The notes below the pieces were generated by a model that made no database searches, had not been told where the DNA came from, and saw nothing but the letters and a program-made list of their open reading frames with translations. A stretch of DNA of 64,000 bases from Octopus vulgaris. Lineage: Eukaryota. This document shows positions 3,201 to 47,786 of this stretch, piece after piece. The stretch lies in assembly GCA_951406725.2 (NCBI GenBank), contig OX597832.1, positions 60,450,001-60,514,000 of the forward strand, in the 5' to 3' direction. The translations under genes were made by a program, and so were the position numbers. Positions within the stretch are counted from its first letter, which is position 1; each line of letters begins with the position of its first letter.

Positions 3201-3976
3201 GCGACACCAGTGCCTGAATAGACACTGAGATTTATATATATCATTGACAGGAGATTTGACTTATCATGCTGCTGGACATCTGTCACTGAGAACTATGTGT
3301 GCTATTATAGACTGAGCAATACGGATCATATGTTTGCATGGAGTCTAAATCCATACAGCAGCAGAGAGAATTGCTCGATGGTTGAACAAGCTGGAGAAAA
3401 AAAAAGCAGTCAAATCTATCCCAAAAACATATTCTGTCATCCTAAAAGAAGATATTATAGTTCCAGAAACACAAAGACTGGATGGTTATGGCTGGAACAC
3501 TTTCGATTAATAATAGGTCTGCACAGAGTCCGAAATGACACAATGGAGACAACAATGGGCATCAACAAGGTCAGTGACAAAATAAGATGCAGAGGCGGGA
3601 ACGCAGACAAGATTGAGAAAGTGACTGTCTGGTGGCACTAAAATGTAAGCCTCAGGGGGAAATAGCAGCAGGGTGCCTTAAAACCACATGGTAAAGGATC
3701 ATTGACAAGGAGGTCAGAACAGCAGCAGAAACAGAGGTGGCAGAAACGTTAGCATGCCAGGCAAAATGCTTAGTGGTATTTCATCTGTCTTTATGTTCTA
3801 AGTTCAACAGAAACATCTCCGTATTCAAGTTAAATTTTGCATTTGCTTATGATGAGGAATTTACAGAAGTGCAGTGGACAAAATGCGTTGCAGTATTTGT
3901 ATTTATTCTTACATTCTGAGTTCAGATCCCATTGAAGGTTCCCTGTCCCATACATTTCTGGTCTTGTGCAATTATA

Positions 3977-4300
3977 GTGGAGATGCAATGGCCCAGTGGT
4001 TAGGGCAGCAGACTTGCAGTCATAGGATCACAGTTTCGATTCCCAGACCGGGCGTTGTGAGTGCTTATTGAGTGAAAACACAAAGCTCTATGAGGCTCTG
4101 GCAAGGGGTGGTGGCGAACCCTGCTGTACTCTTTCACCACAACTTTCTCTTACTCTTTCTTCCTGTTTCTGTTGTACCTGTATTTCAAAGGGATAGCTGA
4201 ATCTCCCCACGAATTACGTTAAGGGTACATGTGTGTCTGTGGAGTGCTAAGCACCTTGCACATTAATTTCATGAGCAGGCTGTTCCGTTGATCAGATCAA
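3977..4300 (+). mobile_element. tRNA-derived SINE
   Basis: Pol III A box tggcccagtgg and B box gtttcgattcc in a tRNA-like head followed by a non-tRNA body; body fragment also near 30360-30410. Confidence 0.75.
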
Positions 4301-4545
4301 CAAAGTGCTGTAGTGTGCAATCATAATTGTCATCAAAAATAATTAACTATAAATTGTCATCTAAAATAATTAACAACAAACAAAATGAGGATAGATATTT
4401 GTCAAATGTAAATAATGTACATAACTCATCTCTTAAATATAGAACTGTATATCAAAAATAATGTAGAGAGAAAGATGAATAGAGTTGTAGATAGATAAAT
4501 AGAAAGTGATGAGTGAAGGCAAATACAAGTGAAAGAAAAACTTAC

Positions 4546-4630
4546 CCTCCATTAGATGCACAAACTTACATTGTGGCCTGTTACACTGGCTAGACTTAAA
4601 ATCGCGGCACAGTGGGAGGGTGTCCAGCAA
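4546..4630 (-). CDS. mbnl: mbnl CCCH zinc-finger exon, 85 nt, phase 0/1: LLDTLPLCRDFKSSQCNRPQCKFVHLME
   Basis: Acceptor cctttctcttccag, donor GAGG|gtaagt; C-x7-C-x4-C-x3-H pattern. Confidence 0.95.
4596..4630 (-). CDS. mbnl: alternative reading frame of the same exon when 16072-16184 is skipped: FAGHPPTVPRF*
   Basis: T|TT GCT GGA CAC CCT CCC ACT GTG CCG CGA TTT TAA; matches the insect Mbl C-terminus FTGHPPGVPRF as I recall it. Confidence 0.75.
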
Positions 4631-6496
4631 CTGGAAGAGAAAGGATAAACATAAGAAATGTATTCTTTGAGTCGGAACATTATTTCATTTGAGAGAGAGC
4701 AAAAAGAGAGACAAGTGAGAGAAAGACAAAAAGATTGATTAAGAGAGGAAAAGAAAAGGTGGAGTAAGAAAGTGACAGTTGTAGAGAAAGAGAGAGGGGG
4801 AGAGAGAAAGAATAAACAGGTTTGAAAGAGGGAGACAGAGAGAGATACACATATGTAATAGAGAGCAAGAGATGGATGAGGACAAGTATATAAGAAATTC
4901 CTATAATAAGGAATCTTGTTAATTTTGCTAATTACAAAATGAACTAAACAAGAATATGTTAATACACACAGCATCCCATACACACACATAAAAGATACAT
5001 GCATACCCATTTAATTTGGTGTGGTGTGTGTATAAAACAAAAAGAAAATTCATTTTAAAAAATTGCAAACATATACAACCTCACCAAAATATTTATAAAC
5101 AAACAAAAATACAATCAATCTATCAAATAAATATATACAGCAACTGCAACAGCAATATGTGGTTGCTAGTGAAGTAGCATGATCAAAATGAAGTAGCCAC
5201 ATGTTAACATCAAAGAAAATGTTTGGAGAAGAATTTAAAAAAAAGATAAATATGCTACATGAAGTATCTATGACAACAGAATTGTAACAACCAAATGCCT
5301 TCACATTCATCAGCCACCCCCACCATTATCCCCAAATGTTGCTAATTAAATAAAAACCCATTAGCAACAAAGCAGCCAATTTGGTAATAAAGTATAGACC
5401 AGACAAGATATGTTCTATGTAATGTTGCTGATAGAACCTAGACAACTGAGTGCCCTCTCCGTGTAGATGTTGCTAATTAAAGAGGAACTTGTTAGTAATG
5501 AAGAGGCAAACTCAATTAAAATGTAATTAACTTGACTATGTTATTACATGAAGACTGATTGATCTGTAGAGTTGGTAGCAATGAGGTTTTAACCAAATTA
5601 GTTAAACATGTTAACTAAGAAGATGGAGGTAACTAAATATTAAGATTTGAATAACAGATAAGCATACAGCAAAAACAGTAGGCTCAGCATTAGTAATGTG
5701 TTGCTAACAGGTTAATAGATGTGTGTCAAGTGGACAGAAACCAAAGGTGTTGACAATTAAATAGCAACACACAACAGAATGATACAAAGTAATGTTGAAC
5801 AATGAAATCAACTAAATGGCAACATGTCAGCAATGATTTAGCAACGACTTCATTGCAAAAAAAAAAAAAATCCAATGCATTAAAAAATAGATAGCAACAC
5901 ATTGCTATGCCACTGGTAGATATACAAATAGTGATGTGTTAATAATGGGATAGCAACATTTTGGGAAAAATGGATAGATATATCAAAAGGAAAAAACACA
6001 TACACACAAATACGGAATATGGAACCGCAAACAAGAATATAAATAGTGTGTATGTATGTGTAGGAGTCTGAAGGTATTAGTATGTTATGTGGATGCCACT
6101 GGAGGTTTTATTGTGCTAATGTGTGCATGCTACCACACATGATGCACATATGCACAATGGTAACAGTTGTTTTCAAGAATGACAATAAAAGACAAAACCA
6201 TAAAAAGAAAAAGAACATTGAGTGATAAAAGTAAAACCTAGACGAAATATTTAGTCCCCACGCCACCCCATCAACCTAACAAATGAACAAACTGTGCATG
6301 TTCATAACCTCAGGAATATTAGTGCATATACCAACATAGATGCATGAATACATCACATTTTGTAAGAATAAATACTTAAGCCATACATACATACACATAT
6401 ATATGTATATATATGCATATATAGGGTAGCGAATATTCGTTATAAATATCACCACCAATGGTCTTACATGTATAAATAGTCAATAGACAACATATT

Positions 6497-6724
6497 CATA
6501 TTTTAAAATAGTGTACATTTAAACACAAAAGAAAATTACCCATTAACAGGTAATTTTCACATGCTAGAAATAACAGCCAACATGGCCAAAACCACGATTT
6601 AATAGCAGAAAACTGCTATTAAATTGTGGTTTTGGCCATGTTGGCTGTTATTTCTAGCATGTAAAAATTACCTGTTAAAGGGTAATTTTCTTTTGTGTTT
6701 AAATGTACACTATTTTAAAATATG
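6497..6724. repeat. near-perfect palindrome: 112-bp arms, 4-nt loop, 3 non-Watson-Crick positions
   Basis: 6497-6608 is the reverse complement of 6613-6724 except pairs 6542/6679, 6558/6663 and 6596/6625. Confidence 0.97.
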
Positions 6725-7095
6725 TGTGTATATATATATATATATACTAAATAACTTTACACATACATACGCTTACATTATCCGACAAGCTTCTTTCAGT
6801 TTCTATTCACTTATCTATACAAAACCACACACACATGCGTGCCTGGGTGCAGGAGATCCTGAGTCCTTCTTATCAAACTTATGTGTCATCATAGGATCCA
6901 ATACCTTATAGTATATTTCTTTCTCGTTTTCTCCACATTTTTCTTTTCTCTCTCTCCCTCTCTCAGTATTAGTCATTTATTAATTTCCTAAATCTTCTGA
7001 AAGACACCTTACACAAGTGACATTTGTTATTGGTGTCAAAGTCTGAAACAAGGCCAGCTACATTTGTAATTAATTAATATTAAAAACATCGATAA

Positions 7096-7310
7096 GGCGG
7101 TGAGAGCAGGCAGAACCATTAACATGCTGGGCAAAATGTTTAGTGGCATCTCGTCCATCATTACATTCTGCAATCAAGTTCTGCCATGGTAGACTTTGCC
7201 TTCCATCTTATCAGAATTGATAAAATAAGTAGCCGTTGAACACTGGGTCGATGTAATCAGCTTACACTCACCCTCGGAATCGATGGCCTTGTGCCAAAAT
7301 TTGAAACCAG
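7096..7310 (+). mobile_element. SINE-like repeat (ggcggtgag..ggcagaa...gtgccaaaatttgaaac family)
   Basis: Multiple copies in the window: 3735-3850 (+), 12570-12756, 26565-26765, 26795-26970 and 37553-37759 (-). Confidence 0.75.
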
Positions 7311-7319
7311 TATTAAAAC

Positions 7320-7543
7320 CAGGGCTGTGGAGTTGAAACAAAAAACTTCAACTCCGACTCCTCTACTATTGGCACCTCCGACTCCAATATGTAATCAAGT
7401 GATTGTGGTCTGTATACCCCATAAAGCATATGCATACACTTGTACTTTGAGTAGGCCTATATGTTATAACTGGTTTATATTAAAGAATAAAGACATTGTG
7501 AGTTGGAGTCAGTATAGTTTTACTGACTGACTCCACAGCCCTG
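7320..7543. mobile_element. hAT-type MITE
   Basis: 14-bp TIR cagggctgtggagt / actccacagccctg, subterminal (g)actcc motifs, 8-bp TSD attaaaac/attcaaac (7 of 8 match). Confidence 0.85.
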
Positions 7544-8287
7544 ATTCAAACCATCATTTGCAATTTCTGAGTATTGATCTCCAATGGGTGTATCCATATT
7601 TTGCTGCATCAGTTTTCTGTTTTGTCTAATATTAATATTTTATATCCTGGTTGTGTGGGTCATGTTTCATGAGTGGTTGCATAACACTCACTAAATGTTA
7701 TGACATTTTCTATTGAGAAATTTTTTATATTATGGTAAATGTTATACCTTTTGACAATAACAGAAAAAACTACCTACTTAGTTATGCATGTTTCTGCCTA
7801 TTCACACACACACATGTGTGTGTGTGTGTGTGAGTTACTTTCCAACCACATCATTTCATGTTCCATCCCACGACATGGTACTTTATTGCTGGGCCACAAG
7901 CAGTGGCATTATTGTCATTTCTCCCGGCTTTGTAATTTCAAGGATGTGTGGAATAAGATACCCCTTACTTTAAAAACAGCTAAGAGTTAACAATGGGAAG
8001 GGTATCTAGCGGTAAAAAAAGAATATCCCAATAACATCTTCATGCAATCCATGCTGGATTGAAAGAACTAGTGCAAGAACAAGGGATATATTTGCATACA
8101 CAAAATGTTCCCCCACACATTCCATTTACCAAATTCCACTCATAATGGTCAACCCAAGGGTATAGTAAAAGACAATTAGCTTAAGTTCCGTGCAGTAGGA
8201 TTAAGCCATGTTGTTGCCAGAAAAACTCAAAATTTCTCCTTCTCATCCTTCTACCTAAATATTGAATTTTTCTTCATATACTACAGG

Positions 8288-8505
8288 CCTTTAGTGTTTA
8301 AAATGGCTATAGCTGGTCCAAATAGTCTATCTGGTTTATGTTCATACCAGCCAGATCCAACCTTTTACACCTATCATACAATATCATTTTAAAAATAAGC
8401 AATCACATCATAAAAATCTCAAGTTACAAAGTTGTGTATGGTTAATTTTGTTTTTAATGCAAATAATTAAACATTACATTTGACAGTAATCTGAATGCTT
8501 AAGGG
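8288..8505 (-). mobile_element. piggyBac-like MITE family 1 copy, opposite orientation
   Basis: Reverse-complement similarity to 46916-47135; ends cctttag ... aagggttaa. Confidence 0.75.
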
Positions 8506-8522
8506 TTAATATCAATGACTAT

Positions 8523-8559
<37 letters not shown>

Positions 8560-9506
8560 CACATCTGAGTATAAACACATAGATATAAGTGTAGCTAGTC
8601 ACAATTATCTTTTCAAGAAAGAGCAGACTTCTTTAACTTGAATCTGAAGAAGATGGCATATACCAACTCAAACAATTCTCCAGACTTTACCAAACTAACA
8701 CAGCACTGAAAGAATGGCATTGTGATGGCATCGTATAAGAAGTAGAATGTTGAACAGAATTAGAGATAGAAGAAAAATTCAAGTAGTAATTTTTGACAAA
8801 TGAAATTGGCAGAGCCTCTTTGGTATAATCGGTAGCACAATTGCCCACCGAACAATAAATGCATGGTTGAGCATAAACACAAAGTGAAGGAGGAAACGTT
8901 TCCTATACATAGAATGAAAAACAGATTTTTAATACAAAGAAAAAATAATGTACAAATACGAAAACTAATGCCAGATTTAAATAATTTTCCCCTCCTTTCT
9001 TAGAGGATAGCAATAGCAAAGTGTGTGGGCTAGTGGGTGCGGATATTGGAAGTGGGGGACGGGCAATGTAAAAAGAAATAGAACCATTGTGAAATAACAT
9101 AGGATATGACTAGAGAAAGAGTTATTTTGCTGTTTCTTTCTTTATTTTATCCACATTCTCAAGTTCTATTTTTTATAAAATTGTTTGTTATATGAAGTTT
9201 TGTTTGCTTTTAATGGGTTAAGTGTGATTGATAATTAAAAATATGCGGAGAACTTTTTCAAGAAGAAATGCTGAAAGCTTGAACTTTTTGCAACGTGCAC
9301 AAGCCTGACTGTGTGGTATAGATGTAGGTTCAATCTGACAGTGAAGTAAGTATCTTCTTCCATAAATGTGGGTTGATAAATATTTTAGTACTTAAAACTT
9401 GCTAAACAGAAACCTTGTAGTAGCTTGTCACATGTGTGTGTGTGTGTGTTTGCATGTATGAAAAATTAATGCTGTGAAAACTAGATGTAAATTAATTTGT
9501 GCTATA

Positions 9507-10330
9507 CATGGTGTGATGAATAAATTGATGCCATTTTATATCTTTAATTTTGTGCATGTGCATTATTTCTGATTTTGTTGACTACAGAGTATAGTAGGGG
9601 CAGCTGGGCATTGCCTGTGAGAAAAACAGTATCATGATGCAATTCACTTTGCTAGAAATTTGGAGACGACATGCTCTATTGCTTGGCATTCACACCAAAA
9701 GCACCAATACAAACATTTCAGAGAGTTTGGGTGTCAATCTGAGGACATGTCCTGAGAGTGATAAAAATCAAACATCCAGCCAACATCATGGGGTTTGGAG
9801 TGATCACTAGTGATGGCGATGTTATGCCTCCATTCATCTTCCCACATGGCCTCAGATTCAACACGGAGGCCTACATCAAGAGCATGGAGGAGGTAGTGCT
9901 GCTGGAAGACCCTATGTTTGGCAACAGGACTCTGCACTATGCTACACAAGCAGGAGAACCCAGTCATAACTGTCAGACAATTTCTGCAACTACATCACCC
10001 CTAACATCTAGCCATCTAATTCCCCTGACTGCAACCCCCTTGATTATTGTGTGGGGTGCAGTTGAGCAAGACACCAACAAAATTCCTTGTAACACCAAAA
10101 GATGAACTGAAGGCAGCATTCACAAACTTAAACAAAGAGACCGTCCATAGAAATTCAGAAGTTGTCTGGTGATTATAGTTGAAGCCAATGACGATTTTAC
10201 CGAATAAATTTACTCTTTAGTATTTCAAGATACTTTTATGTAATTTTGGTAAATATATATGTTAAAATGAGGTGCGAGTGTTATTTTTATTGTTGCGTAA
10301 TTTGGATGATAGTTTATTCACTGCACCCTG
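9507..10330 (+). mobile_element. internally deleted, decayed Tc1/mariner DNA transposon (probably DD37D/maT-like)
   Basis: Frameshifted transposase fragments KHPANIMGFGVITSDGDVMPPFIFPHGLRFNTEAYI, RPYVWQQDSA and PSNSPDCNPL; imperfect TIRs catggtgtgatgaataaa / tttattcactgcaccctg with TA on the left. Confidence 0.85.
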
Positions 10331-10530
10331 TGTGTATATATATATATACATATATATACATACACACACAAACACATATATATTCTCTCTCTGTTTATTT
10401 TGTGTTCTTTTCTGTTGAAGAGCGTAGACATGAAATGTAAAAGACTTTCACACCTTCCCAAGCGTTAAACTAATAAACTAATACGCCTGTTTGTTGTTTA
10501 TACACCTGTCTTTGTCTTTCTGTAAATTTC

Positions 10531-10566
<36 letters not shown>

Positions 10567-11249
10567 CAACATCACTAGTGCTAGTGGCACAAAAAGGTAC
10601 CTAGTACACTCTATAAAGTGGTTGGTGTTAGGAAGAGTACGCTCTGCAGCTTGTCAAACTGCCCAACCCATGCCAGCATGGAAAGCAGATTTAAATGATG
10701 ATGCTGCTGATATGTGCGTGTATGTGCTTCAGTCAAACAAAGCAAAGTCATGATCCTTTTCAGGCCTCCAAGACAAAAGATAAAAAGTCATTCTCAGCTG
10801 AGAGACCTGATCTGAATATTTTCTACAAAATGTAATTCTGAAAAGGCGCCCAAGGGCCAAGTGGTGATGTTCAACTGGACAATTGATTAATCCTTAAAAG
10901 AAAAAGAAATGCTTATTTATTTTTAAATGGGACGGGGGTAGGGGTAGGGGTTGGGTTGGACTAACTGAAGGTGAACTTAGCCACTTCAATAAGCAGAGAT
11001 CAATGAAACAAGCAGCAGACTAAGGACCAGACCAGACTGCCAGAACCAGTGTCAAATAATTGATAAAACCCCTTGAAAATTGTAGTCCAGCAAGACCACA
11101 AGAATATAAAGGCTGCAACCAAAACTGAGTCATTAGTTACATAGATCTCCTTTGTCACAAACAACTGTGCATCCAGACATTTATTTATCTGTCTATTCAA
11201 CCATCTTTTCCAATTGTCTGCCTACCAGTGCATCTCTTTTCCTCAATCG

Positions 11250-11311
<62 letters not shown>

Positions 11312-12455
11312 AATATATAAATATCTATCACTTCCTCTCCATCTATCTATCTCTCCCTCTCTATCTATTTAACCATCTATCTGTCAGGCTTGAATAAATG
11401 GAGAGCTGCCCCCTAGAAGGAAAAATGCCCCTACCCATCCCTGTAAATACTCCTCATCAATTTTTTTTTTTTTACTTTTGCATCTTACACTCCACCCTAG
11501 TAACCCCCTCTCTCCCATGGAAGGTCCTCATCCAGCTGTCTCTTGTCTAATCAATCCATCTTCTCTCTGTCTAGTAAATTGATAAAGGAGACAACCCAGC
11601 ACAAGTCACTGATCTGAGACACTATAAAATGCCACCTACCCCCTATTGCGCACCAGAGAAAAATAAACAAATAAATCAACCACCCTGTTCACTCATTGCT
11701 CATATGTAACCCAAGACCAGATGGCTCCTCCACCCACCTGGCCACCTCTTCTATGTCACATCCCATCGCACCTCACACTTCTGCTCTAAGCACATTACTT
11801 TCTCTGCTTCCCACTTCTTTGCTACCATTCCTAATTAATAGATTTTGCTGTCACTATCACCACGAGACACTACACACACACACACACACACACAAGGTTC
11901 TTCTCTGCCATACACTCATCTGCTTAGCCACCATATTCCCACACCACATCTCCTCAGCTTCACCATCCATCATCTCTCTCTCTCTCTACCTGCCTCCTAC
12001 CCCTCTCTCAAATGCAGTCTAATAACAATAGAAGGAATAAGAGAAGCCACTGCAGTTAGAGTGGCGATGGGGTAGGATACACCAGAGAAGCCAAGTAAAA
12101 AATATGTGAGAGAAAAAAAAACATGTCAGACATTTTGTTGGCAGAAAGGACTCTTGGGTGGTTGAACGGGTGGAATATATCAATCAGGGTGGAAGAGCAC
12201 AAGTAAAAAAAAAAAAGAGTTAAATTCTCTCTCTCTCCACACACACACACACATGTATATGGCTTGATAAGTGTATTGTGTAATTATTACATGAGACAAC
12301 ACAGTCTGTCACCAATGACAATTGTATTCTAACAGATTATTGTATTACATAAATTTGTGTACATATGTACGTGTGTATAAATATATAATGTCTGTATCTA
12401 CAGACATACACACACACACGTGTGTGTATGTGTATGTAGGATTGTAAAATAAGTG

Positions 12456-12499
<44 letters not shown>

Positions 12500-12929
12500 T
12501 ATGTGTGTATATATATATAAAATTCTGCTAATCCACCACCCATAATGATTTTTTTCTCCTATAGACACAAAGTCTGAAACTTTTGGGATGAGACGGGTGG
12601 GGGCTACTTGATTACATCGACCCAATACTTAACTGGTACGTGGCTTCATCAACCCTGAAAGGATGGGAGGCAAAGTCGACCATGGTGGAATTTGAACCGA
12701 GAACAAAGTCAGATAAAATGCTAAGCATGCTAACAATTTTGCTAGGTTGCTACCTTAACCATTCTTAATGATAATTGCTTCTAGTATCCTAATAATAACC
12801 ACCACCATATTTAGAGGTTCACATCCCCAGTAATTTTTCTTAACACTATGTACTTGAATACTTATAGTACTTACAACTATATTCCATGTATAAATTTAGT
12901 AAACATTTAACTAAATAATAATAACGTTA

Positions 12930-13780
12930 TTAGGTTTACACCCCAAAATTGGCAAGTTACAGACTGACAATGGGATTTACACTTTGGTTTACTCTTTGGG
13001 AACATTTCTCCTGAACAAAACTTCCATCACAAGAAAAAAATCAAGACCAACAATTTGCATTTCATTCCATACAGTTGTGGCAAGAAATATGAAGGTGAGG
13101 TCAGCTGCCCATGAAAAAGAAGGCAACAGAAACATTATAAAGCTGAAAATCCACGAGAAGATTAAGAAAATAAGGCATAGCTCAACCTTTGAGGAAGGAA
13201 AAACAAAGTCAGCAACTCATGTCAAGACAACAGAGAACAATACTGAAAGATAAAAGAATTGGTACATAAGTTGAAAGAATTGGTATGTAAGTTTGTGATA
13301 ACTTCCTCAGTAGATCCAGCAGAAAGATGAACACTAGATAAGAGCCTGTATTTAACAAAGAACATAAAGCCTAAGATCATAAACAAATAAGTTTAAAGCT
13401 CCTAAATTAATTGACCTATGGTACAATAGCACAGTGAATATAAGAGTTGATTAAACACCAAGTAATAAGGGCATTAATTTACTTAGTGGCTATAAGTTCA
13501 ATCCCTAGATCAGTGGATCTGTACATATTCTGGTTGTAGTGTAGTGAACTAGAGGCAACACAAATTTAAGTAAAACTAATATAAAAATATCTCTAACACT
13601 GACAATGGAAGGAGATCAGTTTACCACAGTTGTTTGAATTAAAGATTTGACTTGAAACTCCATGTACGTTACCAAATATGACAGACATTTGAAGAAGGTT
13701 GGAGGATACAACTGCTGAAATGTTGCGATTTACAACCAAAAGAGGAACAACAATCTTGATATATCAGTATACTCATAGTT
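12930..13780 (+). mobile_element. decayed Penelope-like retroelement (GIY-YIG endonuclease end)
   Basis: IPYSCGKKYEGE at about 13064-13099 resembles IPCSCGK.YIGET; tgaagaagg...gaaatgttg at about 13690-13725 resembles the Penelope pseudo-LTR hammerhead core (CUGANGA...GAAA), degraded. Confidence 0.6.
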
Positions 13781-14747
13781 TCTCTCAGTGACTGACCTGT
13801 TGGAAACCTGTAACCAACAATGCTCTCACTCACTAATTACAGTATGCCTTTTTTAAAAATGAAATGGAAAACAAAAATCCGCTTACAAGGAGTGGAACTC
13901 AGCACCATAAGCTAACAAAACATTTTGTCAATGTAACAGTGCATTTGATGCTTAGAGTAGAAACTTGTTCGACACTGCAATACTTATTTAGAGGTAGTGG
14001 GGAAGTTAAAACTTAATTGCAGGTAGACTGCAGATCCAGCACGGTACACGAGAGCTTCTTGCTTGGTGTGTCTGCTACTGCATCAACATGGTTATTTATA
14101 AGGTGATGGTCACCAGGTCAGTTATACATTTTGATTACCCAAAGACCCACTTCCAGAATATAATAATCCTTATCACCAGTAGAGTGAACAAGGAAAAAAC
14201 CCCAGAAAAATGAGCTGAAATATGGAACTGTTTCATAAAGCAGAGAGACAAACTCCATTTAACACATTCATACACACAAACTGATATCACATGCAAAAAG
14301 ACAGCCACTACCACACGGACCAAAATAAACATTGGTACTTAAAACCAAATTACAAACATGCAAGAATATATAACAGATAGGTGTTTGACATATATAAGAG
14401 ACAAGCGCACTCAATACTGGGTGGGAAAGTTTAATATATACCTGAGTATAGCATAATACAATCAACTAATGTGGCTTTGAGCCATTTCGTGAAATTATGT
14501 CGTAATTACTTAATGATACTTGTCAGGTGTTATAAACATCCCAACAGAGTTTGTACAAGATGAATTAACAAAGAGAACAAAAGTGATTGTATTATATATT
14601 AGCCAAAAGAGGAACTTAAACAAAAAAAAAAAAAAAAAGCAAGAAAAACGAAAGGGATTCAAACTAGAGATAAATGATATGTTTATTTTCATTTTGTGAA
14701 ACTGACGAGTTTGAGGACTGGCAAAATTGAGACAAAACTGCTAATTA

Positions 14748-15136
14748 TATGACATGTGTATATATATACATGTATATATACATGTGTATATATATACATG
14801 TGTATATATATATGTATATATACATACATGTATATATACATGTGTATATACATACATGTATATATACATGTGTATATACATACATGTATATATACATGTG
14901 TATATACATGTGTATATACATACATGTATATATACATGTGTATATACATACATGTATATATACATGTGTATATACATGTATATATACATGTGTATATACA
15001 TGTATATATATTTGTATATATATATACATGTATATATGTGTATATATATGTATATATACATGTGTATATATATATGTATATATATACATGTGTATATATA
15101 TATGTATATATACATACATGTATATATACATATGTG

Positions 15137-15225
<89 letters not shown>

Positions 15226-15253
15226 GTGTAATATATATATATATATATATATA

Positions 15254-15332
<79 letters not shown>

Positions 15333-15335
15333 ATG

Positions 15336-15366
<31 letters not shown>

Positions 15367-15369
15367 GTA

Positions 15370-15413
<44 letters not shown>

Positions 15414-15443
15414 CACACACACACACATACATACATACATACA
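14748..15443. repeat. compound (TA)n microsatellite with higher-order CATGTATATATA / CATGTGTATATA units
   Basis: Directly visible. Confidence 0.98.
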
Positions 15444-15659
15444 CAAATGTGAGAAATTTCTGAATACATAATGCAGAATGTATAACAATTAAAAAACTGA
15501 GATTTTTAGACCATTGTCAGTTTTGTGTTTTGCAATGCAGCTTTATGCCACAACTAAATATTATTGAGAAAAAAAAAAGTGGTAAGGCAAAAGCTAAAAT
15601 AACAACGGTTTAAAATTTCAGCTTTTCATTGTTTATGTATGCATGTATATATGTATGAA

Positions 15660-15693
<34 letters not shown>

Positions 15694-16071
15694 GGTATGC
15701 ATGTGTGTAAGTGTATGTATGTGTATATACATATATATATATGCACGCATAAGTGAACTCATAACTATGTATGTTGATATGTATATGGTTAAAAGAAGTT
15801 CGATATATGACAAAAGAAAAAAATGTGATACAGATATCTTCTTGGCCATGTATAAAAAATAAAAGACAAATCATATTTGTCTTAAGATTAAGAAAAGTTC
15901 AAGACACGAATGAAACAAAACCAAAAGATACTTAAACAGTAAGATAAGCAGAAATGAAGAAAGCAAACACGCAATACAATAATAATAATAAAACACTAGT
16001 AAAACAAAGAGCAGTAGTAGAAGCAGGTGTAGCACTAAGGATGATGAAGAAGAGTTTTAGAGCACTACTAC

Positions 16072-16184
16072 CTGGTTGTTCTCATCAAAGTAATTTACAC
16101 TAGCAGCATTAGTAGGAAGTGAGGTGGTGCTAGTAGCAGCACTTGCCATCGATGCAGGCTGGTTAGTGTTGGCAATCATCGGCA
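16072..16184 (-). CDS. mbnl: mbnl frame-shifting cassette exon (exon-8 equivalent), 113 nt, phase 1/0: LPMIANTNQPASMASAATSTTSLPTNAASVNYFDENNQ
   Basis: ccacag acceptor, CAG|gtagta donor; resembles vertebrate exon 8 VPM...SAATTSATSVP...NQ (recalled); bridges phase 1 to the phase-0 zinc-finger frame of exon 4630. Confidence 0.88.
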
Positions 16185-16507
16185 CTGTGGGTGGTTGTCA
16201 TTTGGAAAGTTTTTGTTTTTTTTCAGAAGACAAGAAGGGTCAACAACAGAGGTGGTGGTGGTGTGGTGGTGTTGGCGGCAGCAGCGGTAGCAGCAGCAGC
16301 AGCAGTAGTAGTAGATGACAGCAGCAGGAGCAGCAGTGGTAGCAGCAGCAGCCGATAGCAGCAGCGGCAGCAGGAGTGGTTATAAAAGTGCAGACGAAGC
16401 ACAGGTGACATGCAGAGTAGTGGTACAAGTGCACAGGAGAGGGTCAAGGTATGAAAGAGAGGAATAGCAAAAAAAAAAAGTAAAAAAAAAGAAAAGAAAT
16501 AGTAGAC
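16185..16507 (-). promoter_or_regulatory. about 320-nt AG exclusion zone containing an interrupted CUG tract (more than 20 YGCY)
   Basis: No CT dinucleotide on the plus strand from 16187 to 16507; distal pyrimidine tract 16441-16500; (CUG/CCG)n at 16274-16372; A/C-rich spacer directly before the AG. Confidence 0.75.
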
Positions 16508-36659: not shown

Positions 36660-36695
36660 AAGTGAAATAAGGTTCATTCAGCTTGGTTGAAGAAT
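36660..36695 (-). CDS. mbnl: mbnl microexon B, 36 nt, phase 1/1: YSSTKLNEPYFT
   Basis: ctcac branch candidates, tract cccctttttctctccttc, caacag acceptor and TT|gtaagt donor; frame-preserving; same size, phase and position as vertebrate MBNL1 exon 7 (36 nt). Confidence 0.85.
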
Positions 36696-45834: not shown

Positions 45835-45876
45835 AAGTAAAATACGGTTGAATTTCATTCAGCTTTGTGGATGAAT
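45835..45876 (-). CDS. mbnl: mbnl microexon A, 42 nt, phase 1/1: YSSTKLNEIQPYFT
   Basis: Branch-like attaac, pyrimidine tract, aatccag acceptor and TT|gtaagt donor; frame-preserving; paralogous to 36660-36695. Confidence 0.85.
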
Positions 45877-47644: not shown

Positions 47645-47786
47645 ATGTTACTGGTAAGTATGGCTGTTGAAGTTGCATTGCAAGTGCCTGCTGGTAGGCC
47701 ACATTGCCAGGTTGATAGACTGGGACGCCACTTTTACTATCTGCCACTGCCACACGTTTAGCATAAGGTGCACCGGTAATACCACC
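47645..47786 (-). CDS. mbnl: mbnl exon (exon-6 equivalent), 142 nt, phase 0/1: GGITGAPYAKRVAVADSKSGVPVYQPGNVAYQQALAMQLQQPYLPVT
   Basis: Acceptor tttcctcttgttggcactag, donor ACAT|gtaagt; KR..., KSG.PVYQP and YQQALAMQLQQ are Muscleblind family motifs. Confidence 0.95.

Follow-up and report, generated by a model that had tools for sequence, protein, structure and literature searches.

A cassette exon in octopus muscleblind that would choose between a third zinc-finger pair and a conserved 11-residue tail

The muscleblind locus

The stretch of Octopus vulgaris DNA considered here (GCA_951406725.2, contig OX597832.1, positions 60,450,001 to 60,514,000; 64,000 nucleotides, hereafter the window) contains the 3′ half of the Octopus muscleblind gene on its minus strand, and within it a cassette exon whose inclusion or skipping would decide in which of two frames the following exon is read. 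All features lie on the minus strand and are given in window positions. The second KR exon (47786-47645; 142 nucleotides (nt), ending in phase 1) is a 100% match to P0004, a protein record whose source name is Octopus vulgaris muscleblind. Two microexons follow at 45876-45835 (42 nt) and 36695-36660 (36 nt), both running from phase 1 to phase 1; the second is a near-duplicate of the first, and both are translated in P0004-P0007. Next come an alternative last exon, the coding part of which (31730-31600) bypasses everything downstream, the switch exon (16184-16072; 113 nt, phase 1 to 0), the dual-frame exon (4630-4546; 85 nt) and the coding part of the last exon (1289-1153).

In frame 0 the exon at 4630 translates as LLDTLPLCRDFKSSQCNRPQCKFVHLME, which includes finger 5 and runs on into the exon at 1289, where a second CCCH finger (finger 6) and a stop codon lie. 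The other frame of the same exon gives (F)AGHPPTVPRF and a TAA stop at 4598-4596, so that 35 nt (4630-4596) are dual-coded; this stop falls 50 nt before the last junction, and the last exon becomes 3′ untranslated region (UTR) in the skip isoform. The original prediction had placed the exon ends at 47645, 45835 and 36660 all in phase 1, had paired a CCCH finger from 4630-4546 with the exon at 1289 when the 113-nt exon is included, and had read FAGHPPTVPRF and a stop from the same bases when it is skipped; translation bears out the phases and both readings.

The switch exon appears poorly defined by its splice sites. Its donor, gtagta, is non-consensus, as had been claimed, and the acceptor at 16184 is apparently weak too, no pyrimidine tract being adjacent. 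The donor is non-consensus in six of the seven lineages examined, so its weakness is conserved. Three internal AG acceptors, at 16158, 16141 and 16129, were considered and fail to yield the phase 1-to-0 shift. In octopus the reading frame stays open through the switch exon and the two finger exons, with every Cys and His ligand kept, and the 3′ end of the switch exon codes for a conserved lead-in to the finger pair. Its linker aligns end to end with that of a clam (13 of 37 residues identical, E 3e-6).

The first finger pair of the gene is encoded upstream of the window. The second is an optional 243-nt exon, also upstream and beyond the window, at ~74286-74044 in extended coordinates (C19 ~60524044-60524286; L007/L068), which makes the pair described here the third. 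Isoforms with one to three finger pairs could result.

Side features of the region can be noted briefly. The microexons 45835-45876 and 36660-36695 are also translated in other cephalopod-like records, and in lineages L012, L014, L015, L020, P0016 and P0260 extra phase-preserving exons separate the second KR exon from the tail. A degenerate TA repeat of 650 base pairs occupies 14759-15413, ~660 nt 3′ of the switch exon.

A third tandem zinc finger

Statements here about cited papers refer to the parts of each that were available. Both CCCH fingers of the octopus third pair (third tandem zinc finger, TZF3) are adjacent, with all ligands present, and the Cys and His positions are invariant or nearly so in alignments A1 and A2. 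Finger 5 has the spacing CX7CX4CX3H in place of the canonical CX7CX6CX3H of MBNL first fingers (PMC11837677); with CX4 where pairs 1 and 2 have CX6, it is distinct from both. Finger 6, spaced CX7CX4CX3H, is like a canonical second finger. The label "TZF3" in PMC11837677 denotes fingers 3/4, and not this third pair.

A tree of 68 finger pairs places the third pairs in one clade (99/97), apart from the first pairs (95/95), with second pairs unresolved; since it is built from only 62 columns, these supports are rough. The idea that the pair is a misplaced second pair is rejected on this tree and on the presence of the true second pair upstream. A search with the scallop region found matches to the TZF3 region in 214 of 217 candidates, the taxonomic reading being that of the 120 hits listed among the 214. 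Named records carry the linker and TZF3 in bivalves, snails, spiders, a scorpion, a sea spider, insects including Drosophila montana, and Trichinella, and the third pair also occurs in sea urchins, hemichordates, Clonorchis and hagfish. Anopheles atroparvus is annotated with both forms (P0146; P0254, P0274), and two hagfish records (P0432, P0435) are vertebrate MBNL proteins with six CCCH fingers. At the level of sequence, these comparisons show TZF3 to be its own old clade, a tandem zinc finger separate from the first two and with a range that extends from molluscs to hagfish.

For fold comparison a predicted model of an orthologous pair, that in P0330, rather than of the octopus pair itself, was used, and all 10 of its matches at E<=0.001 are MBNL1/2 pairs. 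TZF3 is predicted to bind RNA. The linker end in the P0330 model is predicted to be ordered, with a predicted local distance difference test (pLDDT) score of 72-88 over residues 21-40, and the switch exon may for this reason supply part of the finger domain too.

Several records depart from the common arrangement. In mosquitoes (P0120-P0124, P0128, P0172, P0174) a 9-residue in-frame insert lies between the switch exon and finger 5, a pattern that suggests an alternative splice site. In hagfish P0433 and P0434, finger 5 is joined to a C2H2 array, possibly a read-through annotation. A four-finger MBNL of the rotifer Adineta steineri (P0395) has at its C-terminus a sequence that resembles a diverged tail; should this rotifer have lost the third pair, the tail would have been kept on its own.

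Two frames under selection

A metagenome scan with two patterns written for the finger frame only returned 52 loci, of which 37 had the 5′ part by pattern, 3 more by hand and 12 the 3′ exon only. From these, 38 exons (that of the window included) were reduced to 21 representatives below 88% identity; L045, which has an extra downstream codon, is out of register there. Across the 21, the third bases of finger codons 2, 3, 4, 8 and 11 are identical in 21, 21, 20, 21 and 20 sequences. Mean third-base identity up to the tail stop is 0.72 at 4-fold and 0.83 at 2-fold codons, and falls after it to 0.32 and 0.53, respectively. Synonymous sites past the tail stop are saturated and five before it are nearly frozen; the finger frame is thus constrained at its synonymous sites only where the tail frame codes, as is expected of dual coding. 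The drop in synonymous rate proposed for the first 35 nt is found.

Nor is the tail a mere shadow of the finger frame. Its core is kept in 23 of 23 sequences (the 21 with L014 and L020), whereas redrawing the synonymous codons would keep it with a mean probability of only 0.038 per sequence, and this test rejects that explanation. The claim that both frames are conserved is supported. Of the changes that do occur, those at four variable sites leave the tail reading untouched (His, Pro, Arg and stop), and three of these sites alter the finger protein. For instance, the third base of codon 9 is only A or C, Arg either way, in 21 of 21; codon 12 begins AA or AG, giving a tail stop of TAA or TAG; and a Thr>Ile change in the finger leaves the tail His intact. 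A single tail site is free, as V, M or L. Where the finger carries Glu at one position, as in Clonorchis and hemichordates, the tail His is not encodable.

From these patterns of substitution we conclude that both frames are under selection, and the tail presumably functions as a C-terminal motif. Among 117 hits, 59 end in FTGHPPGVPRF and 3 in PRFQ; the Zeugodacus records are of the PRFQ type. The tail is one codon longer, as PRFQ, in L062:601-640, P0190, P0191 and P0195. The finger frame of L062 matches that of D. montana P0142 across this exon, for which reason the fly tail may bear an extra Gln.

Isoforms in octopus

Contigs from four octopus runs, taken by guess to be RNA, were mapped to the window stretch 3210-8520, outside which the switch exon lies; splicing was judged from arithmetic on lengths, not from junction letters. 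In three of the four runs one piece covers exactly 4546-4630 within a longer contig, and in run X14 no piece at exon 4630-4546 is among the matches listed. The X5 and X9 contigs carry 412 nt upstream of 4630, which equals 192+142+42+36, the exon chain of P0004 and thus of the skip form. The last intron contains high-copy repeats at 3730-4450 and 7110-7500, which drew most of the contigs mapped there.

The tail ends 3 of 14 Octopus protein records (P0004, P0007, P0031). In the other 11 the protein stops in the alternative last exon 31730-31600 and so reaches neither the tail nor the third pair; 11 of 12 O. sinensis records are of this kind. Of the 17 transcript-like metagenome loci, 16 enter the dual-frame exon in the tail frame and are open upstream, and 1 is unspliced. 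The skip form is supported as one that octopus makes. We infer that octopus also makes the inclusion form, because its exons are intact and its linker aligns end to end with the clam linker.

A switch known from flies

The switch itself is already known, as exon AE3 of Drosophila mbl, and the octopus exon is very probably its mollusc orthologue. An earlier study (Pamudurti 2022; PMC9352392) described fly mbl-C as excluding AE3; when that exon is included, the reading frame changes and two further zinc fingers are gained. Westerns showed both proteins. Photoreceptors are the main site of mbl-O/P, whereas mbl-C is found in neurons and muscle, and knockdowns detected no crosstalk between the two forms. 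The octopus arrangement is alike in being a cassette exon in the 3′ part of the gene that shifts the frame, adds two fingers (113 nt being 3n+2) and shares a last exon with the alternative form. Differences are found in the linker, about 21 residues in the AE3-type fly protein and 37 in octopus, and in a long disordered extension of the fly long form, unlike octopus. The available parts of that paper treat an isoform pair and mention neither tail conservation, a third pair nor other phyla.

Another fly study (Irion 2012; PMC3315501) reported an isoform, MblF, with a divergent extra finger pair, 32% identical to human. This extra pair is probably the third pair, although the authors regarded it as matching vertebrate pair 2 poorly and not as a separate one; the new exon 5 of the same study is the true second pair.

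Weighing the alternatives

That octopus carries a molluscan orthologue of the switch by which flies make mbl-C or mbl-O/P is, as a whole explanation, very probable. By default the weakly defined 113-nt exon would be skipped and a phase-1 donor joined to 4630, upon which the ribosome would read the 11-residue tail and stop, leaving the third-finger exons as 3′ UTR. In some cell types the exon would be included, moving the phase from 1 to 0, and the same bases would begin TZF3; judging from the fly, the choice is most likely set mainly by cell-type factors. Several observations weigh against this explanation. TZF3 is found in 0 of 14 Octopus protein records, the inclusion junction was not seen in the octopus contigs mapped over 3210-8520, and none of the 17 transcript-like loci is of the inclusion type. 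The X2 contig, with 221 nt upstream, fits either skipping (142+42+36+1) or inclusion (30+42+36+113). Fly AE3 and the octopus exon were equated from the text of PMC9352392 alone. The representatives in the selection analysis are mutually related, such that counts overstate independence and do not amount to 23 independent trials, and the scan patterns demand Asp in the finger frame, excluding Glu lineages (Clonorchis, hemichordates). Absence of inclusion from the octopus records and contigs examined, and the non-consensus splice sites at both ends of the switch exon, would also be expected if the octopus switch were vestigial, the 113-nt exon having ceased to be included and every transcript ending with the tail or the alternative last exon. 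Yet the switch and finger exons are open with all Cys and His kept, the linker aligns with that of clam, and a non-consensus donor is itself conserved in 6 of 7 lineages, which leaves a vestigial switch very improbable.

Two further explanations concern the tail and the transcript that encodes it. The skip stop, 50 nt upstream of one more junction, sits at the edge of the 50-55 nt rule for nonsense-mediated decay (NMD); the skip form could then be an unproductive transcript that limits MBNL level. This, too, we consider highly unlikely, as the skip form is the commonest among transcript-like loci (16 of 17) and in flies MBL-C protein gives one of the main bands on western blots (PMC9352392). 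Alternatively, the frozen bases could reflect an RNA-level element, such as a splice enhancer or protein-binding site, together with a requirement for a stop, the tail peptide being a by-product. Such an element would account for 21 of the first 35 nt being invariant in 23 sequences, directly after a 3′ splice site, and the passages of the cited papers that were examined assign the tail no function. It would not account for changes that respect the tail protein (Arg through A or C, TAA or TAG, His kept, and V, M or L), and selection at the RNA level alone is correspondingly unlikely. Orthology with the fly switch, with selection on both frames, remains our preferred explanation.

Possible control by MBNL

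Whether MBNL itself contributes to the choice was approached by counting YGCY motifs along 123 kb of the sense strand, in 4,906 windows of 250 nt that overlap one another (median 2). The densest cluster, 25 per 250 nt, lies upstream of and extends into the switch exon; it is the upstream array claimed by the original prediction, for which 23 motifs are counted at 16469-16277, 93-285 nt 5′ of the exon. The next two clusters are likewise at alternative exons. The second densest, at 54640-54775, is 5′ of the first KR (nuclear-localisation) cassette exon (54639-54571; 69 nt, phase 0; in P0007 and P0008, not in P0004), with 12 motifs in the 250 nt upstream and 15 in the best window, and serves as an internal positive control. 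The third, 13 per 250 nt, lies just downstream of the second-pair exon. MBNL sites downstream of an exon usually result in activation, and from such a position MBNL could favour the second pair and at the same time repress the third.

If MBNL were the main controller, it would bind the YGCY array and repress the switch exon, such that high MBNL yields the short form. The placing of the three top clusters at the switch, KR and second-pair exons (25, 15 and 13 against a median of 2) is what this would predict. The KR exon is an MBNL-repressed cassette already known as autoregulated in worm and human (PMC10773944), and loss of MBNL1 in mouse raises inclusion of Mbnl2 exon 9, with sites from individual-nucleotide crosslinking and immunoprecipitation (iCLIP) upstream of and inside that exon (PMC9943662). 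However, the array is a CTG/CTA simple repeat, microsatellite-like, and an antisense cluster of 15 is also present; enrichment in the 300 nt before the donor is seen in only one of five other lineages (in L054/L058, and not in L043, L045, L053 or L060). [quoted passage not shown] MBNL as the main controller is accordingly somewhat doubtful. The more limited proposal, that in octopus MBNL at the array adds repression to the switch exon, is one we put forward only tentatively. Of the original interpretation, then, the dual-coding switch and the conservation of both frames stand, and MBNL autoregulation is unproven.

The vertebrate 95-nt exon

Vertebrate MBNL genes offer a possible counterpart. 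In mouse, the 95-nt exon 9 of Mbnl2 alters the reading frame and eliminates a degron, and is itself under repression by MBNL1 (Nitschke 2023; PMC9943662), and MBNL alternative exons of 54, 36 and 95 nt have been described in that order (Sznajder 2016; PMC5137450). In octopus the exons run in the same order, with 69, then 42 and 36, then 113 nt. The vertebrate 36-nt exon and the octopus 36-nt microexon match in size and place, and the 95-nt exon and the octopus switch exon are alike as cassettes of 3n+2 length that follow a KR-region exon and an optional 36-nt exon and shift the C-terminal frame; the 113-nt exon agrees in position, phase and 3n+2 length. The hagfish linker before the third pair, at 31 residues, fits 95 nt, its 5′ boundary being inferred. 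In jawed vertebrates, as described, no finger pair follows the 95-nt exon, and in MBNL2 the effect is that a PEST degron is lost (PMC9943662). A PEST motif in the octopus tail is unlikely, because the tail is 11 residues long and none is acidic. No linker query was significant against the vertebrate exon (eel model, frame-shifted residue sets); for the octopus linker, 113 of 200 shuffles reach the score in the likely frame, a weak test given low complexity. On position, phase and size, orthology of the switch exon with the 95-nt exon is moderately probable.

Other known systems are related in part. The KR exon, counterpart of octopus 54639-54571, is an MBNL-repressed cassette conserved across bilaterians (PMC10773944); unlike the switch exon it is in frame and sets nuclear localisation, and that paper counts one or two finger pairs. 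Two dual-coding preprints (bioRxiv 10.64898/2026.05.28.727796 and 10.64898/2026.02.24.707805) describe single exons with two constrained frames and list MBNL1/MBNL2; they are human-centred, and their MBNL cases, in the available parts, are vertebrate C-termini and not the overlap of finger and tail.

A more speculative history, possible but on balance doubtful, would join these elements. The bilaterian ancestor would have possessed three finger pairs, with a phase 1-to-0 cassette giving access to the third. Protostomes would have overprinted a selected 11-residue tail on the exon that encodes the first finger of this pair, hagfish would have kept the third pair, and jawed vertebrates would have lost it and kept the cassette as the 95-nt exon, with MBNL control persisting in octopus. 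If true, the frameshift exon that MBNL represses, and that is mis-spliced in myotonic dystrophy, would be a remnant of a switch in RNA-binding-domain number.

Implications for the muscleblind family

No description of the third pair, of a six-finger hagfish MBNL or of tail-frame conservation was found in open-licence papers, and the third pair goes unmentioned in the available parts of PMC2238819, PMC5041496, PMC11837677, PMC4978528 and PMC13044900. The depth of conservation, selection on both frames, the hagfish third pair and the possible link to the 95-nt exon appear to be unreported in that literature.

A 2026 review gives invertebrates one finger pair and vertebrates two (PMC13044900). 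With a third pair in animals from molluscs to hagfish, the ancestral architecture of the family changes, and the 35 dual-coded bases are a clear and very old example of selection on two frames. Isoform tools already available in the fly provide a means to probe the roles of the third pair and of the tail. Should orthology with the vertebrate exon hold, the octopus switch would also provide an origin for the 95-nt exon, the splicing of which goes wrong in myotonic dystrophy (PMC5137450).

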